From Deltaproteobacteria bacterium GWC2_55_46 (GTDB taxonomy: Bacteria > Desulfobacterota > GWC2-55-46), in the NCBI GenBank assembly GCA_001595385.3, contig LVEI03000002.1:51924-115923 (forward strand): a DNA stretch of 64,000 nucleotides, read 5' to 3'. The number at the start of each line of letters is the position of its first letter. The first letter of the stretch is position 1. The position numbers and the translations under genes were made by a program. This document shows positions 13,334 through 46,777 of this stretch, piece by piece. The notes under the pieces are model-generated. The model saw only the letters and a program-made list of their open reading frames with translations. It had not been told where the DNA came from and made no database searches.

Positions 13334-13410
<77 letters not shown>

Positions 13411-13420
13411 GTTAAATCAA

Positions 13421-13452
13421 GGGGTTACGGAGTTTCCGTAGCCCCTTTTTTT
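13421..13452 (+). terminator. Rho-independent terminator after tRNA-Pro
   Basis: 11-bp stem GGGGTTACGGA/TCCGTAGCCCC with loop GTT, followed by T7. Confidence 0.7.
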
Positions 13453-13646
13453 ATGAAAAAGGCAATTGGTATACAGTTTGGTCTACAGTTTGACAAAATA
13501 TAAAAAGCCGCCCCCCTTTCGGGTAAGCGGCTGAAGGGAAGGGCCCTCCGGGTAACTCATGGGCGGTGAGCCCGGAAGGGCGCGTGGAGGGTGTGGGGGA
13601 GGGTGTTCGTGCTCGGAGGCTATGGCTTCGGCGGTTTTCTCTGGGT

Positions 13647-33437: not shown

Positions 33438-33629
33438 ATGTCTGAAAAACAGCAATTCACCAAGTTCGATTACTACGTCTTCGGCTGGACCATATTCCTG
33501 TTCTTCGCCGTCTTCTGGTTCTTCAACGCGGAGTCCTGGGACCAGTACCTTGAAGGTATGACCGGGTTTGCCATGATAGGCGGGGCGCTGACGTTATGGG
33601 ATCACATATCTGAACGGAGGACAAAATGA
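33438..33629 (+). CDS. Two-TM membrane protein
   Basis: 63 aa with SD AAAGGAG. Hydrophobic segments WTIFLFFAVFWFF and FAMIGGALTLW. Confidence 0.55.
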   Translation: MSEKQQFTKFDYYVFGWTIFLFFAVFWFFNAESWDQYLEGMTGFAMIGGALTLWDHISERRTK

Positions 33630-34621
33630 GCAGCCAGCCTCAAGAGCAGGCCATGCTCCTTATGGCCCTTGCTTCGCTCGGCAAAAGGCTTGAAGGCATT
33701 GAGAAGCGGCTGGACGGGAAAACCCCCGTCCTTCTCGTCGAGGAGGCCGCGGAGGGGTTCAAGGCGTACCTCAAAGAGAACGCCAGGCCGAATACCCGAA
33801 GGTCCTTCGACTACCTGCTTGCCGAGTTCGAGAAGGAGTTCGCCGGCCAGAACGTACCGGAGATCCCCCCGTACAGGCTACAGGAGTTCCTCGGGGCGAC
33901 GTGGGGCAAGGGGAAGAAGAGCGTGGTCAAACAGTCCCTCTCCAAGCTCAAGTGGTTTTATTCCTGGTGCATCAAGGCCGTCATGGTCAAGGGCATGCCG
34001 CTGTTCTACAACCCCTGTGACCTTATCGAGGTCAAGGACGACGGTCCTCCTGATAGACCGGAGTTCGTGCCGGTCGAGAAGATGAAAGCGTTTCTGGACA
34101 CGATGGTTGACCCCAAGCACTGGCTTATGACAGCCATCCTTATGACCTCAGGGATGAGGGTTTCCGAGTTGCTTGGAGACAAACGGGCAGAAAAACCTGG
34201 ACTCTGCAAGAAGGACGTAAGTGGGAGGATCCTTGCACTCCACAACACCAAGTCGGGGAGAAGGGGAGAGGTCGCCGTGATCCCCGTCTGGGTAGCCGAG
34301 CGTCTCAGCCAGTTCTTGCAAAACCTCGGGCCGGAGGATAGAATCTTCACCACGGGCTACACCTCGTATCACGGTGTCGTGAAGTCCCACGGGAAGAGGG
34401 TCGGATTGGATATGAAGCCGCATTACATGAGAAAGTGGATAGCGAGCTTATGGAACAGGATGGGGGAATACGGGATGACCTCGTTCGTGCTCAGACACGC
34501 TACAACGAAGGCGAACGAAGCAACCCTCGTAACCGCGCTTGGAGCAAGGTACGTGGCACCACTCAGTCCGAAAGAGGCGATGGAGAAACAAGATGAAATG
34601 CTAAACTTTCCCAGGAGGTAA
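33626..34621 (+). CDS. Tyrosine recombinase/integrase
   Basis: SAM-like N-domain. Catalytic-domain motifs SGMRVSELLG (Arg), HYMRKW (HxxR) and LRHAT...GARY. Confidence 0.75.
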   Translation: MSSQPQEQAMLLMALASLGKRLEGIEKRLDGKTPVLLVEEAAEGFKAYLKENARPNTRRSFDYLLAEFEKEFAGQNVPEIPPYRLQEFLGATWGKGKKSVVKQSLSKLKWFYSWCIKAVMVKGMPLFYNPCDLIEVKDDGPPDRPEFVPVEKMKAFLDTMVDPKHWLMTAILMTSGMRVSELLGDKRAEKPGLCKKDVSGRILALHNTKSGRRGEVAVIPVWVAERLSQFLQNLGPEDRIFTTGYTSYHGVVKSHGKRVGLDMKPHYMRKWIASLWNRMGEYGMTSFVLRHATTKANEATLVTALGARYVAPLSPKEAMEKQDEMLNFPRR

Positions 34622-35414: not shown

Positions 35415-35804
35415 TCAGAGCACCTTTTCCAGATTCTGAATCGTCATGTCGATGATATGTGCGCCCACGATAGTGTTGCTGCCCGACGCATAAGTCCACT
35501 TAAAGACTGCCCTGTGAGTTTCCTTCTCAAGAACGCTGTCCTGTATGGCTGTATCCGCTGAAGCTGTTTGCCAGGCGAGATTGCCCTCTGCGTCCACTGT
35601 TACGCCTTCCGCATTCAACACATCCTGGTCAGACCTGTCGTTTATTATCGCATAGGCCGGAGAGTCACTCGTGCTGTACAGCGTCAGTGTGAGCGTCAAG
35701 AGGCTCGTACCCGGGACGGGGGTGCCAGCCTCGTCTTCAATCACCGCCGTTATCTTGGGCGTGGTCTTTTCAAGTATGAGGTCTGTGAGTATGGTCTGGT
35801 TCAC
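35415..35804 (-). CDS. Hypothetical protein (third gene of the beta-helix operon)
   Basis: GTG start after GAAGGAGG. 129 aa, beta-rich composition. Confidence 0.55.
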   Translation of the reverse strand: MNQTILTDLILEKTTPKITAVIEDEAGTPVPGTSLLTLTLTLYSTSDSPAYAIINDRSDQDVLNAEGVTVDAEGNLAWQTASADTAIQDSVLEKETHRAVFKWTYASGSNTIVGAHIIDMTIQNLEKVL

Positions 35805-35814
35805 GGTGCCTCCT

Positions 35815-36033
35815 TCACGGGACTAAGGTTATGTCTGTCATGCCGGCCTGCCGGAGGCTCACGGTGGCAAGGGCGCCTTGCCCGGCCTGCGCCCCGGATA
35901 AGGTTGGCTGTGCAGTGCTTACGCCGGTCATGCCGGCTTTGCCAATTTGCATATCGGATAAAGCCGGCTGCATGACGCTTATGCCTGTTAATAACGGTTC
36001 GCTTACGGTCACATTGACAAACATCAGGGCCAC
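35815..36033 (-). CDS. 72-aa repeat protein (approx. 11-aa Q-x-x-L/M-S/T-G/D periodicity)
   Basis: SD GAGGTG upstream. The DNA shows approx. 66-nt tandem units (CGGATAAGGTTGGCTG... / CGGATAAAGCCGGCTG...). Confidence 0.45.
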   Translation of the reverse strand: MALMFVNVTVSEPLLTGISVMQPALSDMQIGKAGMTGVSTAQPTLSGAQAGQGALATVSLRQAGMTDITLVP

Positions 36034-36177
36034 CTCACCGTCACAGCAGTTAAGCCAGATTGAAAGAGTCCTACCGAATACAGGTTAATATAGCCAACAA
36101 TAACGGCTGTATCTTCCCATGCCAGCCAACCATGCGTGAACACCCCCGGTCCGAGGCGACCTCTAACCGCAAGCGCC

Positions 36178-38025
36178 TCAAACACCAGCACTCCTTATTT
36201 TCCCGGTCGAGTCCACGGTGAACTCAATGATTTTCTGAGTCTCGGCGTTATCCTCAAAATACTCATACTTCTTTGAGCCGTCCGGGTTGTCTGTCTGTTT
36301 CAGCCTGCCGCGCTCCATTTTGTAGAGGAGTTCCGACATTACCTTTGTGGCTGCAATGGACGCTTCATTTGTGGCCTCGTTCAAATATTGATAGCAGTTT
36401 ATCGTCTCTGAGTTTGCGCCCGTCAGATTGATGTCCCCGGAGGTATTCCCCTCGACGATAAGCCCCGGCCCGATTATATGGTTATTGTCTGCCCCGTTCA
36501 ATTCGTTTATTCCGTAGCCTGTGTTCTGTGTTATGGCCGTGCCCTTCTCCCCGGCGAACACATAGTTATTTTGCGTATTGGCCCCGTCGAATCTAATGCC
36601 ATCTCCATCGTTGGAAAGTATCCTGGTGTTCCTGATTACGTTCCGAACAGCATTGCCGGAGGTGGATTTGATGGATATAGCATGGCCGCTGCCGCCCTGC
36701 GCGGCGTCCTGAATCACCACATCGTCAATTAGGGCGTGGCTTCCGTTGAGCGAGGCTATCCCATGCCCGCGGCTGTAATCCACCCACACCTTTCTTACCA
36801 GAGCGAAGTCCGCCTGTATGGAGATGGCATCTTTCGACCCGCTGTTTGCTGTTTCTATGATGAAGCCAGAAATCTCACAACCCGGAGCAGATATGGTGAC
36901 AGTGTTGTTTGCCGTCGAAGTGGTCTTGATTTTCAAATCTCTCCCCGGCCCACGGAGGAGGGTAAAGGCTTTATTCATGTCAAAAAATGTATCAACCTGA
37001 GTAGTCGCGCCGATATCCCCCGGCATGCCAATGACTATATCATGCCGATATGCCACAACGAGGGCATTGACCCCTGCCCATGTAAGCTTCGCGGTTGAAG
37101 GAGTAAGCCCATCATTGCTGTCGTTGCCTCCAATAGGATTCCAGTAGAAGATCCGCCCCCTGCCCGTATGCGTTCCCCTCTGATATTCGATGAGGTTGAA
37201 AAGGTTATCAGTATTATTATTAACAGTCGCTTCCTTCGCCAGCACTATCCTGTGTGTATCCACTCCGCTATCGTCTATCTCACCGAGCCCGTTCCCTAAG
37301 AAGACTGTTCCCGCCGCGATATAGGTGTCTTCCGCCCCTCCTCCGACTTTCAAGCCATATTCTCCGTTGCCATGCAATGTCATCCCATCCTTCAGCCGGA
37401 CGTCATGGTTGTCAGTCCCCGTAATATTCACACCGTTATCGCCGCAATTATCTACATATCCGTCAAGGAGGTCGATTCCGTTGTTATTGTTGCCGAAATC
37501 AATGCCATCGGTCCCGCAATTTTTAATAGAAAACTTTTCATAAATATCCCCGTGTCCATTAACCGAATATATGCCGCGACGGGAAGCCCCTTTCACTATA
37601 ACTCCGCTAAAGTGAAAGTATTTGCCGTCCTTCCTGATACCATCTACATTCGCCCCCGCGAGAGAAACGTCGAGGTGAAGTCCGGTCATCTGGACGCCTT
37701 CCGCAAGGACCTCAACGGCTGCGCCGGACGGTAGGGCGGTCGTCGGACGTATTCTGGCGTCAAACCCAGGGCCTCTTAGGGACAGCCAGTTTTTCGTTAT
37801 GCTGATGTTCTCATCTATATAAAATACCCCCCCACTATTCGTGCTGCTGAGGTAGATGGCATCATGACCCCAATCCGCGCAAAGACTGTGAGCCTGCGCG
37901 AATGTCTTGACCGCAGATTTTTCCGAGATACCATCGTTAGCGTCATTTCCATTGACAGGGTCCCAATAGTAACTATCCCCTTTGTTGGTATGATGCCCTC
38001 TCAACGATTCCACCATGAACTGCAT
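36178..38025 (-). CDS. Right-handed parallel beta-helix protein with an internal two-domain duplication (tailspike/depolymerase-like)
   Basis: Two copies of the H-T-x-(K/R)-G-x-x-(Y/F)-YW-(D/N)-P-x-x-GND-x-NDG leader, each followed by NxxGxxI-type beta-helix coils. Start at M85 (38025) is chosen because the upstream 84 aa look like antisense translation. Confidence 0.6.
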   Translation of the reverse strand: MQFMVESLRGHHTNKGDSYYWDPVNGNDANDGISEKSAVKTFAQAHSLCADWGHDAIYLSSTNSGGVFYIDENISITKNWLSLRGPGFDARIRPTTALPSGAAVEVLAEGVQMTGLHLDVSLAGANVDGIRKDGKYFHFSGVIVKGASRRGIYSVNGHGDIYEKFSIKNCGTDGIDFGNNNNGIDLLDGYVDNCGDNGVNITGTDNHDVRLKDGMTLHGNGEYGLKVGGGAEDTYIAAGTVFLGNGLGEIDDSGVDTHRIVLAKEATVNNNTDNLFNLIEYQRGTHTGRGRIFYWNPIGGNDSNDGLTPSTAKLTWAGVNALVVAYRHDIVIGMPGDIGATTQVDTFFDMNKAFTLLRGPGRDLKIKTTSTANNTVTISAPGCEISGFIIETANSGSKDAISIQADFALVRKVWVDYSRGHGIASLNGSHALIDDVVIQDAAQGGSGHAISIKSTSGNAVRNVIRNTRILSNDGDGIRFDGANTQNNYVFAGEKGTAITQNTGYGINELNGADNNHIIGPGLIVEGNTSGDINLTGANSETINCYQYLNEATNEASIAATKVMSELLYKMERGRLKQTDNPDGSKKYEYFEDNAETQKIIEFTVDSTGKIRSAGV

Positions 38026-38062
38026 GTATTCACGGTTGTTCAAGGGACTATTGAGCAGGTGA

Positions 38063-38503
38063 CTTACCACTTGTGTCGAGCCCGTGGAGTTGTCCGAGCA
38101 ATTTTTCAAGGAACTCTTCTGGCTTAAGGGGGATAACCTCGACAAACACGGCATACTTAAAGACCTGGCCGCTGACAGCGGGTTCAGGTTCAGTTTCCGC
38201 GCGGCGGCCTCCAAATTCAAGATCATAGATGAGTCATTACAAGCGTCCGTACTTGTCAGATACGGCGGGGGAGACAAGTTGATCGAACAATTAATAAAGA
38301 ATGGTCCCGAGCGGTGGCTAATGAGAAAGCTTCAGAGATATGCGGTCAACGTGCCAAGGTATCTGTTAGAAAAACTAATCAAATCGGGCGAAATCGAAGT
38401 GCTGTTTGAGGGCATATTCGCTCAATCTACCATCAGTCGCTATGACCAAACCCTCGGTCTTTGTTACGGAACCGCAATAGAGCCCGATGACTTGATAGTA
38501 TGA
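38063..38503 (+). pseudogene. Putative 3' remnant of cas3 (type I-C helicase-nuclease C-terminus)
   Basis: Protein-like open frame ending 32 nt before cas5c, the position cas3 occupies in canonical I-C operons. The frame opens only at 38063. Identity is not verified by search. Confidence 0.4.
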
Positions 38504-38534
38504 GTGTTAATTTACAGGAAAGGAGGGAAAAGAC

Positions 38535-39215
38535 ATGGCTACTGTCTTAAAAAGCCGTCTTATGCATCTTAAGGTTTGGGGGCAGAACGCGTGTTTCACC
38601 AGGCCCGAGATGAAGGTTGAGAGGGTCTCGTATGATGTAATGACTCCATCCGCCGCAAGAGGGGTATTAGAAGCCATTCTTTGGAAGCCTGCCATAGTCT
38701 GGCGGATAGCGCAGATCGATGTGCTTCGGCCCATCAAGTGGGCGTCGGTCAGGAGGAACGAGGTGGGTGCCGTGATGTCGGCTCGCTCCGCTGGGATTTT
38801 TGTTGAAGATGAGAGGCAACAGAGGGCGGGACTAATCCTCCGGGATGTCGAATACACCATACACGCTTTTTTTGAAATGACGGAGAGAGCAGGTCCGGCG
38901 GATAATGTTGTCAAGTTTGAGGAGATGTTCCAACGGCGCGCGGAAAACGGCCAATGCTTTCACAGACCGTACTTGGGGTGCAGGGAGTTCGTGGCGCACT
39001 TCAATCCTGTTCTTAAAGACGAGCTCTTGCCAGAGCCGATAGATAAAAACATGGATCTGGGCTGGATGCTCTATGACATTAAACATGATAATAGCGCTGA
39101 TGTAAACTACATACACCTTTGCGGTGCCGGATGCCGACCATACTTCTTCCGAGCTTCGTTGGATAAAGGCATTGTGCTGGTGCCCCCAGCGGCAAGCAAG
39201 GAGGTGAGGGGATGA
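38535..39215 (+). CDS. cas5: Cas5c/Cas5d (type I-C pre-crRNA endoribonuclease)
   Basis: LKVWGQNACFTRPEMKVERVSYDVMTPSAARGVLEAILWKP is the canonical Cas5d N-terminus. Confidence 0.9.
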   Translation: MATVLKSRLMHLKVWGQNACFTRPEMKVERVSYDVMTPSAARGVLEAILWKPAIVWRIAQIDVLRPIKWASVRRNEVGAVMSARSAGIFVEDERQQRAGLILRDVEYTIHAFFEMTERAGPADNVVKFEEMFQRRAENGQCFHRPYLGCREFVAHFNPVLKDELLPEPIDKNMDLGWMLYDIKHDNSADVNYIHLCGAGCRPYFFRASLDKGIVLVPPAASKEVRG

Positions 39216-40945
39216 TACTTCAGGCATTAAATGCTTATTATAGGCGGATGGCGACGGATAAGGACTCTGATATCGCACCCGAGGGATTTCAAAGGCAAGC
39301 AATCCCGTTTGTCGTCATGCTTGACGGTAAAGGCCGATTCAGAGGCATTCAAGATACAAGGCAAACAGATGGGAAAAAGAAGATTGCGCGTACTTTTATC
39401 GTTCCGAAAGCCGTCAAAAGGTCAGTCGGTATTGAGGCCAATCTTCTATGGGACAACCCCGCTTATGTCTTTGGGTGTTCGAAACCTGATAAAAAGAAGG
39501 ATGGCGTAAAAGCCGCCGAACGCGCCAAGGAACAGCAGGAGAGTTTCATTGCTAAAGTCAAAAAAAATTTACCCGATTCATCAGATATCGGAGTGAATGC
39601 GGTTCTTCAATTCCTCGCTACTCGCGATTTCATCGGCGTATTTTCGCATACTTTGTGGCCTGAAATTGAGGAGGGCGGGGCAAATATAGCCTTTCAGCTT
39701 GAAGGTGACACGGAACTCGTATGCCAGCGCGATGCAGTAGTGAATACCATTATGAAAGGAAAGGAAGATGAAAACGAAACAGCATCGCCTTGCCTTGTAA
39801 CAGGAGAAATGACCGTCCCTGCTCGCCTACATACCGCCATTAAAGGCGTATGGGGGGCACAGTCCGCAGGTGCGAACATCGTCTCATTTAATCTCGATGC
39901 CTTTACTTCGTTTGGAAAAACGCAGGGCTTCAATGCGCCAATTGGGGAAAAAGCCGAGCACGCATATACGACTGCAATAAACACCTTGCTTGCAAAAGGC
40001 TCAAGGCAACGCATACAGGTAGGAGACGCAAGCACGGTCTTCTGGGCAGAAAGACAGAATGTCATGGAGGAATTGTTTAAAGATTTTTTTGGAGAACCCC
40101 CTAAAGGACAATCGGCGCAGGACAATGAGGCGATAAAAGCGCTCTTTAAAGCGCCTGAAACAGGAGCGCCTCCTCTCGATAGCGACTTGACGAAGTTCTA
40201 TGTCCTTGGCCTTTCACCAAACGCATCCCGTATTGCGGTGCGCTTCTGGTATGCAGGGACCGTTGGATGTGTCGCCCAGAATATCAGGCAACATTTTTGC
40301 GATTGCAGTATCGTCCACAGTCCAAGGGAACCCGAACATCTCTCGTTATTCCGGCTCCTCGTTTCAACCGCAATGGAGGGAAAGGCGGACAATATTCAAC
40401 CGAACCTTTCAGGAGAGGTGATGAAGGCGATACTTTCAGGAAATCCATATCCTAAAACGCTGCTTTCATCAGCTATAAGGAGGATCAAGGCCGAGAGGGA
40501 AATAACCTATCCAAGGGCATCCCTCATTAAGGCAATTCTCGTGAGGGAATCAAGATTTTATAACAGAAAAGAAAAGGAGGTAAGTATGTCACTTGACCCC
40601 GAAAACAAAAACACAGGGTATCTCTTGGGGCGCTTATTTGCGGTTCTGGAGCGGGCGCAGGAGTTCGCAAGTCCGGGCATTAACGCAACTATCAGAGACC
40701 GCTTCTATGGCTCGGCATCGAGCACTCCGGTTGCCGCCTTCCCCCACTTGATGAAGCTCAAGAACCACCATATCGCAAAACTCGAAAACAGGGGCGCGGC
40801 GGTAAATCTCGAAAAACAGATAGGCGGGATAATGGAGGGAGTAAGCGATTTTCCCGCGTATCTGAGTCTCCAAGACCAGGGGCGCTTTGCCATTGGCTAC
40901 TACCACCAGAGACAGAGTTTTTTCGTAAAGAAAGACAGTGAATAA
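39212..40945 (+). CDS. cas8c: Cas8c/Csd1 (type I-C large subunit)
   Basis: [13 protein letters not shown]... N-terminus, 577 aa, position between cas5c and cas7c. ATGA overlap. Confidence 0.85.
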
Positions 40946-40964: not shown

Positions 40965-42053
40965 ATGAGCAAAGCAGTAAACAACCGTTATGATTTTGTA
41001 TTGTTATTCGATGTTAAGGACGGGAATCCAAATGGAGACCCCGATGCAGGAAACCTCCCTCGCTTAGACCCGGAAACCGGGCATGGTCTGGTTACGGATG
41101 TGTGCCTGAAAAGGAAGGTAAGGAACTATGTGCAGATGGCCGGACGAGAACAGGGGTTTGATATCTATGTCAAAGAAAAAGCTGTCCTCGGGAGAGCACA
41201 TGTCGATGCATTTAAACGACTCGGAATCCAATTAGGAGAAGAATCCAAAGTACAAATACCATCTGGCCTGGTCGACAAATTTTCTGAATTGAGCTTGCCT
41301 GATGGTTTGAGGGTTGAAGAGGACGATAATACTGATTTTCTTCTCATTGAATCCGATGTTGATAAAAAAGCAGTTAAAGAATGGATAAAAGAGATAAAGC
41401 CCGACAAGGATATAAAGAAGTTTATTGATGATACAATGAAAGGGGCAAAATCTCGAAAGCCATCTGGAGACGAGGTGCAAAAAGGAAGAGATGAGATGTG
41501 TAAAACATTCTATGACATACGCACTTTTGGTGCTGTGTTGTCACTAAAGTCAGCCCCGAACTGCGGACAGGTGCGCGGCCCTGTCCAATTAACCTTCGCC
41601 CGCAGCATAGACCAGATAGCGCCTCTTGAGCACAGCATCACCCGCATGGCCGTGGCGACCGAGGCAGAGGCCGAGAAACAGCAGGGCGATAACCGCACGA
41701 TGGGAAGGAAGTTTACGGTCCCCTACGGCCTTTACAGGTGCCACGGGTTCGTCTCCGCTCCGCTTGCCTCACAGACCGGTTTTACGGACGATGACCTGGA
41801 GCTTCTGTGGAAGTCTCTTACTGAAATGTTCGAGCACGACCGCTCTGCCGCGCGTGGAGAGATGTCTACACGGAAGCTCGTGGTCTTCAAGCACGATAGC
41901 GCCCTCGGCAGCGCCCCGGCTCATGCACTGTTCGAGCGCGTCACGGTCTCGCGCAAAAGCGTTGCGGCTCCACCACGCGGTTTTGCTGATTACGAGATCA
42001 ATATTAGTAAAGTAGGCCTCCCGAATGGGGTCAGCATAATCGAGAAACCGTAG
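40965..42053 (+). CDS. cas7: Cas7c/Csd2
   Basis: [27 protein letters not shown] is the canonical Csd2 sequence. ATG 40965 after AAAGGAGGG. Confidence 0.9.
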
Positions 42054-42060
42054 GCGACTC

Positions 42061-42753
42061 ATGTTCTCCGAAGACGACCTCCTCCCCATCTCCGCGCTCC
42101 AGCACCTCTCGTTCTGCGAGCGGCAGTGGGGGCTTATACACCTTGAGGGCATCTGGGGGGAAAACCGCCTGACCGTGGAAGGCCGCCATCTCCATGACAG
42201 GGCGCATGAGGATGAAACCGAGGTCCGGCGCGATCTACGCATAGCCCGGGGGCTTCGCCTTCGCTCTTTAAGGCTCGGGCTTTCCGGGAAGGCGGACGTC
42301 GTTGAGTTCCATCTCGTAAAGGAGGCGGACAAAACAGGCGGCATGCGCCTTGAGGGTGTCGCGGGTCTCTGGCGGCCCGTTCCCGTTGAGTATAAACGTG
42401 GCAAGCCAAAATTGGACGCGTGCGACGAGGTCCAGATTTGCGCTCAGGCGCTCTGTATCGAGGAGATGACCGGCGCGCAGGTGCAGAACGGGATGCTCTT
42501 TTACGGTACTCCGAGAAGAAGATATGATGTACTCTTTGACACCGGGTTAAAGGGGAAAACGGAAGCGCTCTGTGTGCGCCTCCATGAGCTTACAAAGGCG
42601 CGCAAAACACCGGCGGCAAAATACGAGAAGAAATGCGAGAGCTGTTCCCTTATCGACTTTTGCATGCCCAAAACCGTCGGCAAGCGGACGAAAGTGGAAA
42701 GATACATCATGGCGGCCATCTCTGATACTGCCGATACAAAAGGAACGGAATGA
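42061..42753 (+). CDS. cas4: Cas4 (RecB-like nuclease with 4-Cys cluster)
   Basis: ISALQHLSFCERQWGL... and C-terminal CESCSLIDFC. Confidence 0.9.
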   Translation: MFSEDDLLPISALQHLSFCERQWGLIHLEGIWGENRLTVEGRHLHDRAHEDETEVRRDLRIARGLRLRSLRLGLSGKADVVEFHLVKEADKTGGMRLEGVAGLWRPVPVEYKRGKPKLDACDEVQICAQALCIEEMTGAQVQNGMLFYGTPRRRYDVLFDTGLKGKTEALCVRLHELTKARKTPAAKYEKKCESCSLIDFCMPKTVGKRTKVERYIMAAISDTADTKGTE

Positions 42754-43781
42754 AGCGGCTGCTCAATACGCTTTTTGTCACCACTCAAGGCGCATACCTT
42801 TCCCGCGAAGGAGAGACCGTGCTCGTCCGGGTGGAATACGAAACAAAGCTTCGGGTGCCGATCCACACCCTCGGAGGGATAGTTTGTTTCGGACAGGTCT
42901 CGGCGAGCCCTCCGCTTATGGAACTGTGTGGAGAGGCGGGCGTTACGCTCTCTTTTTTGAGCGAGCATGGTCATTTCATTGCACGGGTGCACGGCCCCGT
43001 TTCGGGGAATGTGCTTTTAAGGCGCGAACAATATCGTCGTGCGGATGACGAGACGTCCTCCTCCGTGGTTGCGCGCGCAGTTCTTGTCGCAAAGGTCGCC
43101 AATTGCCGTACGGTTCTACTGCGCTCCGCGCGGGAGAAGCCGGATGCTGATAGCGCGGAGGCCCTTCTTTCCGCCTCCGGGCGCCTGTCGCGAATACTCA
43201 AAAGTCTTGAGAATGAAGCCTCTCTCGATGCCCTCCGGGGCATGGAAGGGGAGGCGGCGCGTACATACTTCAGCGTATTCGATCACCTCGTGCTGTCTCA
43301 GAAGGAAGACTTTTATTTTACGGAGAGGAGCCGAAGGCCTCCGCTTGACAACCTCAACGCGCTGCTCTCATTCATCTACACCTTGCTTGCCCACGATGTC
43401 GCATCGGCGCTTGAGGGTGTGGGGCTTGACCCGGCTGTGGGCTTTTTGCACCGGGACAGACCCGGAAGGCCGGGGCTTGCGCTCGATCTCATGGAGGAGT
43501 TAAGGCCTTTCCTTGCCGACCGGCTGGCGCTTTCTCTTGTGAACCGGCAGCAGGTGAAGGGCAAGGGGTTCAACGCAACCGAGACCAGGGCGGTTATGAT
43601 GGACGACAAAACGCGGAAGGAGGTGCTTGTATCTTATCAAAAACGCAAGCAGGAGGAGATTCAGCATCCTTTCCTGGGCGAAAAGGTGGCAATCGGGCTT
43701 CTCCCTCATTGTCAGGCGATGCTCCTTGCGCGTTATCTGCGTGGCGACATGGATGGATATCCACCGTTCATTTATAAATGA
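42750..43781 (+). CDS. cas1: Cas1 integrase
   Basis: 343 aa. NTLFVTTQGAYL..EGE..., EG.AAR.YF, LN.LLSF.YTLL motifs. ATGA overlap. Confidence 0.9.
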   Translation: MKRLLNTLFVTTQGAYLSREGETVLVRVEYETKLRVPIHTLGGIVCFGQVSASPPLMELCGEAGVTLSFLSEHGHFIARVHGPVSGNVLLRREQYRRADDETSSSVVARAVLVAKVANCRTVLLRSAREKPDADSAEALLSASGRLSRILKSLENEASLDALRGMEGEAARTYFSVFDHLVLSQKEDFYFTERSRRPPLDNLNALLSFIYTLLAHDVASALEGVGLDPAVGFLHRDRPGRPGLALDLMEELRPFLADRLALSLVNRQQVKGKGFNATETRAVMMDDKTRKEVLVSYQKRKQEEIQHPFLGEKVAIGLLPHCQAMLLARYLRGDMDGYPPFIYK

Positions 43782-43790
43782 GGTCAGGTC

Positions 43791-44081
43791 ATGATGGTAT
43801 TGGTGACTTATGATGTGAATACTGAGACCGAGGCAGGCAAAAAAAGGCTCAGGCGCGTTGCCAAAGTATGTGAGAACACCGGCCAGCGGGTGCAGAACTC
43901 GGTTTTTGAATGCCTGGTGGACCCAGCCCGATGGGTCGATATGCGCCAAAAGCTGATTAAGGAGATCGACCCTGCCGTTGATAGTCTGCGGTTCTATTTT
44001 TTGGGGAGCAACTGGAAACGGCGGATTGAGCACGCCGGAGCAAAACCCGCGTATGACCCCGAAGGGCCTCTCATCGTCTAA
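43791..44081 (+). CDS. cas2: Cas2
   Basis: MMVLVTYDV.....GKKRLRRVAK.C...GQRVQNSVFEC is the canonical Cas2 sequence. Confidence 0.9.
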   Translation: MMVLVTYDVNTETEAGKKRLRRVAKVCENTGQRVQNSVFECLVDPARWVDMRQKLIKEIDPAVDSLRFYFLGSNWKRRIEHAGAKPAYDPEGPLIV

Positions 44082-44265: not shown

Positions 44266-45231
44266 GTCGCTCCCCGCGCGGGAGCGTGGATTGAAACCGG
44301 TATGGTCAAGATCCAGTGTGACTATCGGCAGGGTCGCTCCCCGCGCGGGAGCGTGGATTGAAACTTCGTTCCGGAATCGAGCGCGACCTCTAGCACCGTC
44401 GCTCCCCGCGCGGGAGCGTGGATTGAAACATGGTCTTCATCTCAATAAAGAGGCCGTGCTTCCCGGTCGCTCCCCGCGCGGGAGCGTGGATTGAAACTGT
44501 TTCTCTTTAAGGCTCTCTCTGGGACTGATTTTGTCGCTCCCCGCGCGGGAGCGTGGATTGAAACGCGGGACTGGGAGCATAGGATTTCCCGGTCTGTAAG
44601 TCGCTCCCCGCGCGGGAGCGTGGATTGAAACCTTTCAGATCTCTTCGGCATCCTCGCGAAACACGGTCGCTCCCCGCGCGGGAGCGTGGATTGAAACAGG
44701 ATTAGCGGGTGCGCATTTGGCTATAAATTCAGTCGCTCCCCGCGCGGGAGCGTGGATTGAAACGCGTAATGTCATACACCTACCAAATACCTCTTGCAGT
44801 CGCTCCCCGCGCGGGAGCGTGGATTGAAACTGTTAAAAGTAGTTGCGGTGCCTAAATCAACGCAAGTCGCTCCCCGCGCGGGAGCGTGGATTGAAACGAT
44901 GTTGTACCCGTTGACCGGGTGCTTGATCTCCGTCGCTCCCCGCGCGGGAGCGTGGATTGAAACGACGGCATAACCTTCCGCGTAATCTGCCGTATAACGT
45001 CGCTCCCCGCGCGGGAGCGTGGATTGAAACGCTATAGTTACGAGTCTGTCAGCCATCAGAATACGTCGCTCCCCGCGCGGGAGCGTGGATTGAAACTAAA
45101 CACAAGCGGAAACCCCGTCTCAATGACTTCATGTCGCTCCCCGCGCGGGAGCGTGGATTGAAACAGGGAAGGGAAGAAGGAAGAGGCGGCGAAGTGGAAG
45201 TCGCTCCCCGCGCGGGAGCGTGGATTGAGTT
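44266..45231 (+). CRISPR. Type I-C CRISPR array, 15 repeats and 14 spacers
   Basis: 32-nt repeat GTCGCTCCCCGCGCGGGAGCGTGGATTGAAAC. Spacers are 33-36 nt. The last repeat (45200-45231) ends ...GATTGAGTT (degenerate). Confidence 0.97.
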
Positions 45232-45388: not shown

Positions 45389-45697
45389 GTGAAGATGGAG
45401 GGAGGAAGCGGCAGGAGGAAGTTCGACAGTGAGTTCAAGAGGGAGGCTGTACGGCAGGTTGTAGAGGGCGGGCGTCCTGTTGCGGAAGTGGCAAGGAGCC
45501 TCGGGATTCATGAGATGCTTCTGCACAAGTGGAAGCGGCAGTATTCGGAGGACCCCGGAGATTGTTTTCCTGGCAAGGGGCATTTAAAGCCGCAGGAGGA
45601 AGAGATAAGGCGGCTTAAGCGGGAACTCGAAGACGCCAAGCAGGACCGTGAGATTCTAAAAAAAGCGTTGGCCATCTTCTCAAAGCACCGCGGATGA
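45389..45697 (+). CDS. IS3-family transposase OrfA (HTH)
   Basis: RRKFDSEFKREAVRQVVEGGRPVAEVARSLGI....L.KW is the IS3/IS911 OrfA signature. Confidence 0.85.
   Translation: MKMEGGSGRRKFDSEFKREAVRQVVEGGRPVAEVARSLGIHEMLLHKWKRQYSEDPGDCFPGKGHLKPQEEEIRRLKRELEDAKQDREILKKALAIFSKHRG
45658..45665 (+). promoter_or_regulatory. Programmed -1 frameshift slippery site (AAAAAAAG)
   Basis: An A7G run near the orfA 3' end, where the orfB frame opens. The mechanism is established for IS3/IS911. Confidence 0.55.
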
Positions 45698-46555
45698 AGT
45701 ACGAGTTCATGGAAAAAGAGCGCTCCCGGTTCGCGGTGGAGAGGATGTGCCGGCTTTTTGGTCTAACAAGGAGCGGCTATTACGCCTGGTTGAGAGAAAG
45801 GGGCACCGGAAGACGGCTTAAGGAGAACGAGGCCCTTCTGGAGGCGATCAGGCGGTCTTACCGGGCAAGCCGTGGCACATACGGGAGCCCGCGCATTACC
45901 GAGGACATAAGGGACACCGGCCTCCAGTGCGGGGATAACCGTATCGCCAGGCTAATGCGTATAAACGGGATAGCAGCAAAGACCAGGCGGAGGTTCAAGG
46001 CGACGACCAACTCAAGGCATTGCCTTCCCGTGTCTCCTAACCTGCTTAACAGGCATTTTACGGCTGATGGGCCCAACAAGGTCTGGACTTCCGATATCAC
46101 TTACGTATGGACCGAAGAAGGCTGGCTATACCTGGCGGTTGTCCTTGACGTGTTCTCGCGTCAGATAGTGGGCTGGTCGATGGGGGAGAGGATAGATACG
46201 GCTCTTGCCTTAAGGGCTTTCAATCAGGCCGTAATGAGGCGTATACCGACCCCAGGGCTTATCTTCCACTCTGACCGTGGCAGCTAATACGCAAGCGCTG
46301 ACTTCAGGAAGGTCCTGAAAAGTTGCGGCGCCATCCAGAGCATGAGCAACAAGGGCGATTGCTACGATAACGCCGTAACAGAGACGTTCTTCCATACTCT
46401 GAAAACGGAGCTTGTTTACTTCGAGAGATATACAACAAGGGCAGAGCAAAGAGGGGATTTTCGAATACATCGAGGCGTTCTACAATCGCCTCAGGCGGCA
46501 CTCGGCATTGGGATACCGCTCGCCTCATGCGTTCGAGCAGTCAAAAGTAGCTTAA
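45694..46555 (+). pseudogene. IS3-family transposase OrfB (DDE), inactivated
   Basis: In-frame TAA at 46285-46287 within the HSDRGS(Q)YAS motif. A frameshift near 46450 precedes the conserved [20 protein letters not shown] tail. Confidence 0.8.
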
Positions 46556-46777
46556 CCGTGTGTCCATTTTTTCGGGGGAAGATCACACAGAATATTACCA
46601 GGTGACATAGTTATACCTTTCAGTTCCTTTTTAAACCTACTGCGTCTTTATTAAACCGGGTGGATAATCGCTGGTTTTATGGAAGCTTACACTGAATAGA
46701 TTTGAAGACTCCTTTTAGGTAGTATTTGTTTATATAAGATTTAAAAAAATTATAGTTTTTTATTATAAAAAATATAT

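Follow-up and report, generated by a model that had tools for sequence, protein, structure and literature searches.

Investigating a stretch of 64,000 nucleotides from Deltaproteobacteria bacterium GWC2_55_46 (the window, in whose positions all features are given here), we found that its type I-C CRISPR-Cas locus (CRISPR stands for clustered regularly interspaced short palindromic repeats) has kept only the end of the nuclease gene cas3: the forward-strand segment 38087-38503, directly upstream of cas5c, is very probably what a deletion left of a type I-C cas3, a non-functional 3′ stump comprising about 138 of about 727 codons. The source is an uncultured groundwater bacterium, whose metagenome-derived assembly comprises three contigs (C1, C2 and the probably circular C3), totals 2.79 Mb and has an estimated completeness of 100%. 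In type I systems, Cascade (Cas5, Cas8 and Cas7 together with the CRISPR RNA) serves to recognise the target, and the sole nuclease is Cas3. Judged from this gene content, interference and primed adaptation should be lost without the HD-nuclease and helicase parts of Cas3, with at most target binding and naive adaptation remaining, and the only CRISPR-Cas system of this bacterium should count as interference-deficient in surveys of immunity.

Identity and extent of the cas3 stump

The open frame preceding cas5c runs on the forward strand from 38063 to 38503; it contains 146 codons before the TGA at 38501-38503, and a further in-frame stop (TGA at 38060-38062) lies upstream of it. The original prediction, made from the letters alone, had taken the whole frame for the C-terminal remnant of cas3 on the grounds of its position and a general resemblance. 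The identification as the C-terminus of Cas3 was confirmed by matches to two PADLOC models of Cas3c (PDLC01765 with E 3.6e-18, frame residues 9-135 aligning with model positions 500-600 of 612; PDLC01766 with E 7.5e-14) and by the alignment of 38087-38500 with residues 590-727 of the Cas3 encoded by the closest related I-C locus (78% protein identity, E 5e-75). This locus, L090, was obtained from a metagenome scan and served as the main reference for the breakpoint, for identity and for the ratio of nonsynonymous to synonymous substitution rates (dN/dS). The fragment is furthermore 57-61% identical to the C-termini of the Cas3 proteins of 717-755 amino acids (aa) that head canonical I-C operons in related genomes, and weakly matches a Cas3 structure in the PDB (8zns_A, E 0.0035). 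A scan of the fragment against Pfam and NCBIfam gave no match, these libraries being without a model for the C-terminal domain of I-C Cas3.

The extent of the remnant had to be corrected. The cas3-homologous part, which encodes the accessory domain at the C-terminus of the type I-C protein, begins at 38087 and comprises 138 codons plus the stop instead of approximately 146 codons; the eight codons with which the frame opens (38063-38086) are not cas3 but lie antisense to a tail-fibre gene remnant. About 19% of the gene thus remains and about 81% is lost, a large loss as proposed, yet somewhat below the 85% suggested; likewise, the frame does end shortly before cas5c, with a gap to its ATG at 38535 of 31 nucleotides (nt) rather than 32. 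The parts which are missing can be read from the L090 Cas3 (727 aa, encoded directly upstream of cas5c), in which cas3_HD occupies residues 22-176 (101.6 bits against the NCBIfam cut-off of 43.45) and cas3_core residues 240-550 (121.5 bits against 102.45); the models used were TIGR01596 and PF18019 for the HD nuclease and TIGR01587 for the superfamily 2 (SF2) DExH helicase core. As the alignment of the stump is confined to residues 590-727, both the HD nuclease and the helicase core are absent from it.

Screening covered 38 loci from many phyla, which encode relatives of the Cas8c of the window, and 30 of these include enough upstream DNA to be informative about cas3. In all 30, a full-length cas3 (possibly frameshifted in two) lies directly before cas5c, the very position that the stump takes in the window. 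Close relatives of this Cas8c (50-68% identity; loci L045-L082) occur in Brocadia, Smithella, Nitrospirota, Thermotogaceae, Bipolaricaulota and Chloroflexota, and even in a metagenome-assembled genome of an Aenigmatarchaeota; the I-C lineage has therefore been widely spread by horizontal transfer. Five loci (L085-L089) resemble the window in having a short open reading frame (ORF) for a Cas3 C-terminus (141-162 aa) directly upstream of cas5c; they differ in that an N-terminal ORF of 405-547 aa with HD and helicase parts still stands immediately upstream, whereas here such a part is absent from the whole genome.

Could the fragment be a protein in its own right? The annotated frame of 139 aa, starting with GTG at 38084, might encode a functional stand-alone protein consisting of the Cas3 C-terminal domain, such as a Cascade-binding regulator or decoy, or the locus might represent a co-opted Cascade working without Cas3. 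The frame is annotated by gene callers, is free of stop codons and frameshifts and has a dN/dS of 0.10 against L090, and Cas3-less Cascades are known from CRISPR-associated transposons. These points are outweighed by others: no Shine-Dalgarno sequence precedes any in-frame start codon of the stump, while cas5c has one; no sigma-70-like promoter was seen between 38026 and 38534; the frame opens with codons that lie antisense to a different gene; related loci carry full-length Cas3 throughout; and among the ORFs examined, no Tn7-like genes lie nearby. A low dN/dS is moreover to be expected if the deletion is recent, the pairwise synonymous divergence (dS) exceeding 1. We therefore regard this explanation as very improbable; judged from its start region, the stump is probably not translated, and the "hypothetical protein" of 139 aa should be annotated as a cas3 pseudogene fragment. 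We also considered an independent family of stand-alone C-terminal-domain proteins and rejected it, as the short homologues are mostly fragments at contig ends, and the two which could be checked on longer contigs proved to be 3′ parts of split cas3 genes.

The junction with a tail-fibre gene

The sequence to which the stump is joined belongs to a tail-fibre or tailspike-like gene on the reverse strand (36178-38097), which was recognised with BLASTP and tblastx, contains two tandem putative beta-helix domains and is itself truncated at its 5′ end. A beta-helix gene had been predicted on the opposite strand upstream of 38025; the gene is there, but its homology reaches to approximately 38094-38097, and it is not intact. 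Its frame is open on the reverse strand as far as 38277, well beyond the annotated ATG at 38025, which is internal to the homologous region. With the extended frame (36178-38277) as BLASTP query, residue 62 onward aligned with residue 424 onward of the homologue P0008 (739 aa, E 4e-101), and residue 61 onward with residue 437 onward of P0013 (821 aa, E 8e-70). The homology begins at DNSTGS..., the codons of D62 and S61 being 38092-38094 and 38095-38097, respectively, and in a tblastx comparison with locus L083 it likewise has its limit at position 38094.

About 420-436 N-terminal codons are missing from the remnant by comparison with those homologues in which its first beta-helix domain also occurs. 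All 12 tail-fibre homologues possess N-terminal sequence before a conserved LIESQRGxHT motif, a few dozen residues in the shortest and about 420-436 in those with this first domain. Four such N-termini found no match in the whole assembly by tblastn. On a 65-kb phage-like contig, the gene of P0008 forms part of a long operon of large genes that all point in one direction, and none of these genes is present here. Pfam Beta_helix scores the remnant below its cut-off (E 0.0099, 16 bits), and more distant homologues (P0015-P0029) carry PF13229. What is annotated as a "beta-helix protein" of 615-630 aa is hence better described as a prophage tail-fibre gene which has been beheaded.

Both truncations meet at 38086-38097, where the Cas3 homology of the forward strand and the tail-fibre homology of the reverse strand overlap by about 9-12 nt (GAGTTGTCCGA). 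DNA similarity to L090 starts abruptly at 38086, upstream of which only 0-2 positions per 9 nt match, as expected by chance; an alignment of 20 Cas3 C-termini agrees with this break, since a conserved motif immediately upstream of it (P-[ED]-x-F) goes unmatched. The overlap suggests a microhomology at which the two ends would have been joined. A cut at the junction of island and beta-helix gene had been predicted, and a break does exist, though it lies inside both genes and not at an intact island edge or between 38025 and 38060. Loss of most of cas3 by insertion or rearrangement of the island was part of the same proposal; the loss stands, and the event is better explained as a deletion with both of its ends in genes than as a plain insertion. 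From the way in which two divergent, 5′-truncated genes abut, we infer the scar of one deletion. An inversion is disfavoured because the missing part of cas3 and the missing N-terminal part of the tail-fibre gene are both absent from the whole assembly. The deleted DNA would have measured at least about 3 kb, and probably far more if the prophage was complete.

Metagenome-derived genomes can contain contigs mis-joined at short repeats, and the junction might accordingly be an assembly chimera. We consider the chance of this negligible: 22 metagenomic contigs from groundwater (JGI, ENA, NCBI and Logan), representing at least nine samples and processed in four assembly pipelines, span the junction with 99.4-100% identity, and there is no repeat within it. 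Its identical presence in these 22 contigs from independent assemblies shows that the junction is real and has become fixed in the population sampled. Looking up cas5c by exact match likewise returned only contigs identical to the window and no variant with an intact cas3, and none of six genomes of the same genus has the I-C locus or the DNA to its right.

Whether an intact cas3 is present elsewhere in the genome is decisive for the loss of interference, as the original prediction had pointed out. With three full-length I-C Cas3 proteins as queries, tblastn found nothing but the stump on any of the three contigs, and cas3_core and cas3_HD gave nothing beyond the sub-threshold matches to generic helicases and HD proteins which were also seen in all control genomes. 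One might suppose that an unassembled part of the genome or another replicon provides Cas3 in trans and that the locus still interferes, the chromosome being in two contigs that end in insertion sequence (IS) copies, and cas5c to cas2 together with the array being intact. Against this stand the searches just described and the estimated completeness, and the genome holds neither a second cas1 nor a second CRISPR array; the supposition is thus most unlikely.

Proposed history, cause and consequences

For the ancestral arrangement, the surroundings of the locus are informative. A tRNA-Pro(GGG) gene detected with ARAGORN (13334-13410, forward strand) marks the left end (attachment site attL) of a genomic island of about 61 kb, and a terminator hairpin follows at 13423-13454 on the same strand, recognised by its match to the start of L090: bases 1-33 of L090 agree with 13423-13454 in 31 of 33 positions (E 2e-4 in a search of the whole genome), and a terminator-like hairpin is present in L090 as well. 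There, the intact cas3 begins about 320 nt downstream of the tRNA-Pro-type hairpin (312 bases between them), and a near-consensus sigma-70 promoter, TTGAAA-17-TATAAT (11 of 12 matches), lies about 260 nt after the hairpin and about 40 nt before cas3. As far as this comparison goes, the arrangement of L090 fits an entry of mobile DNA between tRNA-Pro and cas3 before the deletion.

Judged from L090, the ancestor would have possessed the operon cas3-cas5c-cas8c-cas7c-cas4-cas1-cas2-CRISPR just downstream of tRNA-Pro, with a promoter before cas3. Phage-like DNA, now occupying 13.4-38.1 kb, would then have entered between tRNA-Pro and cas3, at a site which is a hot spot of integration. A single deletion may subsequently have extended from the inside of the prophage tail-fibre gene to about codon 590 of cas3, removing the front part of the tail-fibre gene and all the DNA in between, probably with the rest of the structural module of the prophage and an att copy, together with the promoter, the HD-nuclease part and the helicase part of cas3. 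The ends would have been joined at approximately 38086-38097, possibly via the roughly 10 nt of microhomology.

The event seems to be young in relation to the locus. The dN/dS of the stump against L090 (0.10) is in the range of those of its intact neighbours cas5c (78% protein identity, dN/dS 0.145) and the N-terminus of cas8c (71%, 0.07); because the stump is as conserved as these neighbours and undisrupted, and because the CRISPR repeats are identical, cas3 was lost recently on the scale of the divergence of the locus (dS above 1).

Several observations weigh against this reconstruction. The low dN/dS of the stump is also compatible with continued constraint, and the adjacency of L090 to a tRNA-Pro is based on a match of 33 nt at a contig end. 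The two unclosed joins of the assembly, at which C1 and C2 end in IS copies, could hide a gene. Finally, the sequences searched contained no ancestral form of this lineage without the deletion, and as only relatives with 55-78% identity are available, the extent of the deletion, the microhomology and the succession of events have been deduced by comparison.

Regarding its cause, a spontaneous illegitimate or microhomology-mediated event serves as the null explanation of the deletion. A more elaborate proposal, which concerns only the cause and is compatible with a cas3 stump left by a deletion, sees in it the scar of CRISPR autoimmunity: a spacer of the I-C array would have targeted the adjacent prophage, bidirectional degradation by Cas3 would have reached cas3 itself, and the ends would have been joined by microhomology. 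In Pseudomonas aeruginosa, the deletions that result from self-targeting by type I-C Cas3 are bidirectional, measure 7-424 kb and vary in their ends (10.1101/860999). The deletion described here resembles them in being large, with arbitrary ends by mobile DNA and a possible repair by microhomology (the overlap of 9-12 nt), and one of its ends lies in prophage DNA beside the cas operon, the other in cas3. Unlike in the published deletions (10.1101/860999), no self-targeting spacer is present, and a causal link is conjecture only. None of the 14 spacers matches the own genome above chance: the best self-match (spacer 2 against the DUF2958 gene of the island) has a run of 15 nt, agrees in register at 19 of 33 positions, lacks the TTC protospacer-adjacent motif (PAM) and is no longer than expected, as 8 of the 14 spacers have chance matches of 14 nt in the genome. 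A search of IMG/VR with the four spacers closest to the leader gave no match, and no spacer matched any of the loci retrieved. The usual escape in the cited experiments was moreover the loss of the spacer and not of cas genes (10.1101/860999), and an ordinary spontaneous deletion accounts for the same scar. Autoimmunity as the cause is therefore unlikely. Slightly less likely still is its strongest form, in which the scar would be a natural record of autoimmunity ended by self-destruction of the nuclease gene, with Cascade, the adaptation genes and the array retained and cutting abolished; if it were true, the survivor would have lost both the target and the nuclease. In a milder variant, the Cas3-less Cascade may have been kept on the island as a programmable repressor.

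The original prediction further took the loss of cas3 as a reason for the tolerance of the neighbouring mobile DNA. This is not supported, because no spacer matches the genome above chance. An effect on the remaining genes is conceivable: since the promoter of L090 precedes cas3 and none comparable is found in 38026-38534, the native promoter of cas5c-cas2 has been lost, and these genes may be poorly expressed.

Decay by deletions into cas3 has parallels. The deletions of type I-E cas genes in Escherichia coli and Salmonella are likewise free of IS elements, have one end inside cas3 and result in a dead locus; they differ from the present case, in which the 3′ end of cas3 survives instead of the 5′ end, none of the Cascade or adaptation genes is lost, and the partner breakpoint is in a prophage tail-fibre gene rather than in a CRISPR repeat or a cas gene. 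Altogether, we are dealing with the ordinary decay of a known system, which implies no new mechanism. Its value lies in a deletion that is resolved at base level and connects a defence locus with a prophage and with an integration hot spot at a tRNA; on a small scale, it cleanly illustrates the erosion of defence islands at places where mobile elements accumulate.

The remaining locus and its genomic setting

In contrast to cas3, the genes from cas5c to cas2, all on the forward strand, are intact as had been predicted, each with a full-length Pfam match. cas5c (38535-39215) matches Cas_Cas5d (E 8.7e-38, model positions 4-213 of 217) and has a strong Shine-Dalgarno sequence (AAGGAGGG); cas8c, also termed Csd1 (39212-40945), matches Cas_Csd1 over positions 1-559 of 559 (E 1.7e-187); cas7c (40965-42053), whose start follows the calls made on identical contigs, matches Cas_Cas7 (E 1.6e-103); cas4 (42061-42753) matches Cas_Cas4 (E 7e-19); cas1 (42750-43781), the sole cas1 according to a search of the own genome, matches Cas_Cas1 (E 6.2e-102); and cas2 (43791-44081) matches CRISPR_Cas2 (E 3.8e-26). 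The only CRISPR array of the genome follows at 44266-45231 on the same strand, with the leader between cas2 and the array; it consists of 15 repeats of 32 nt (GTCGCTCCCCGCGCGGGAGCGTGGATTGAAAC), 14 of them identical and the last degenerate, and 14 spacers of 33-36 nt. The locus thereby shares with canonical type I-C systems (Dvulg/Csd; L090, L025, L027 and the 30 related loci) the gene order, the complete set of genes from cas5c to cas2, a repeat of 32 nt ending in ATTGAAAC, the length of the spacers and a Cas3 C-terminal domain encoded directly before cas5c; it differs from them in the deletion of the first 590 or so codons of cas3 together with the promoter, and in the fusion of the stump to the antisense of a phage gene.

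Some variation was seen in cas8c: one metagenomic contig (L022) has an in-frame deletion of 27 nt at 39688-39714, and two others (L023 and L024) break within the gene at 39688 and 39663, respectively, which suggests a polymorphic spot (39663-39714) within the population. Just beyond the array, an IS3-family element (45389-46605, forward strand; Pfam HTH_Tnp_1, HTH_21, rve and rve_2) contains an orfB split in two, its rve domain being cut after 197 aa and resuming in another frame at 46342 (rve_2, frame of 87 aa). The only single-nucleotide polymorphisms among the population contigs (45560-45802) lie inside this element and probably stem from cross-assembly with other IS copies.

On the other side of the junction, the two tandem putative beta-helix modules of the tail-fibre remnant are each opened by the motif (L/M)(I/V)E(S/Y)(Q/L)RGxHT...YW(D/N)P..GND.NDG, and individual homologues match one or the other module. 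Judged from these alignments, this points to a modular and shuffled family of receptor-binding proteins in groundwater phages. Three small genes on the reverse strand downstream of the remnant (35415-36191; 129, 72 and about 55 aa, from the ORF list and the gene calls on identical contigs) have no family matches. Between tRNA-Pro and the junction, the phage-like element also contains an integrase-like gene (33626-34621, forward strand; phrog_1 of PHROG, E 8e-15), whose product of 331 aa has no Pfam match and no relatives in the viral contigs searched.

The boundaries of the island were traced through the tRNA gene. A second copy of the 3′ end of tRNA-Pro (attR) was not found within the window; the 3′ 55 nt of the gene (13366-13420) recur with 100% identity on contig C1 (C1:3867-3921), and by eye the repeat extends through the terminator hairpin to about 88 nt. 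The copy on C1 adjoins a P4-type integrase (C1:2426-3646; Arm-DNA-bind_3, Phage_int_M and Phage_integrase), and in a genome of the same genus (G006) the flank of tRNA-Pro lies about 6 kb from homologues of C1:4638-13105. Based on this repeat with its integrase and on the synteny with G006, we infer a strain-specific island array of about 61 kb at tRNA-Pro, which reaches from 13411 to the end of C2 and continues with C1:1-3866, C2 and C1 presumably being joined in IS copies. The same tRNA is occupied by a different island of about 49 kb in another genome of the genus (G003). Contig C3 (75,917 bp), which contains no cas3, ends with about 75 nt that repeat the sequence starting 26 nt from its start; it is probably a plasmid or phage, a circular replicon whose ends overlap in the assembly. 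Within the island array at tRNA-Pro, a lipid gene cluster occupies 47.7-64 kb of the window.

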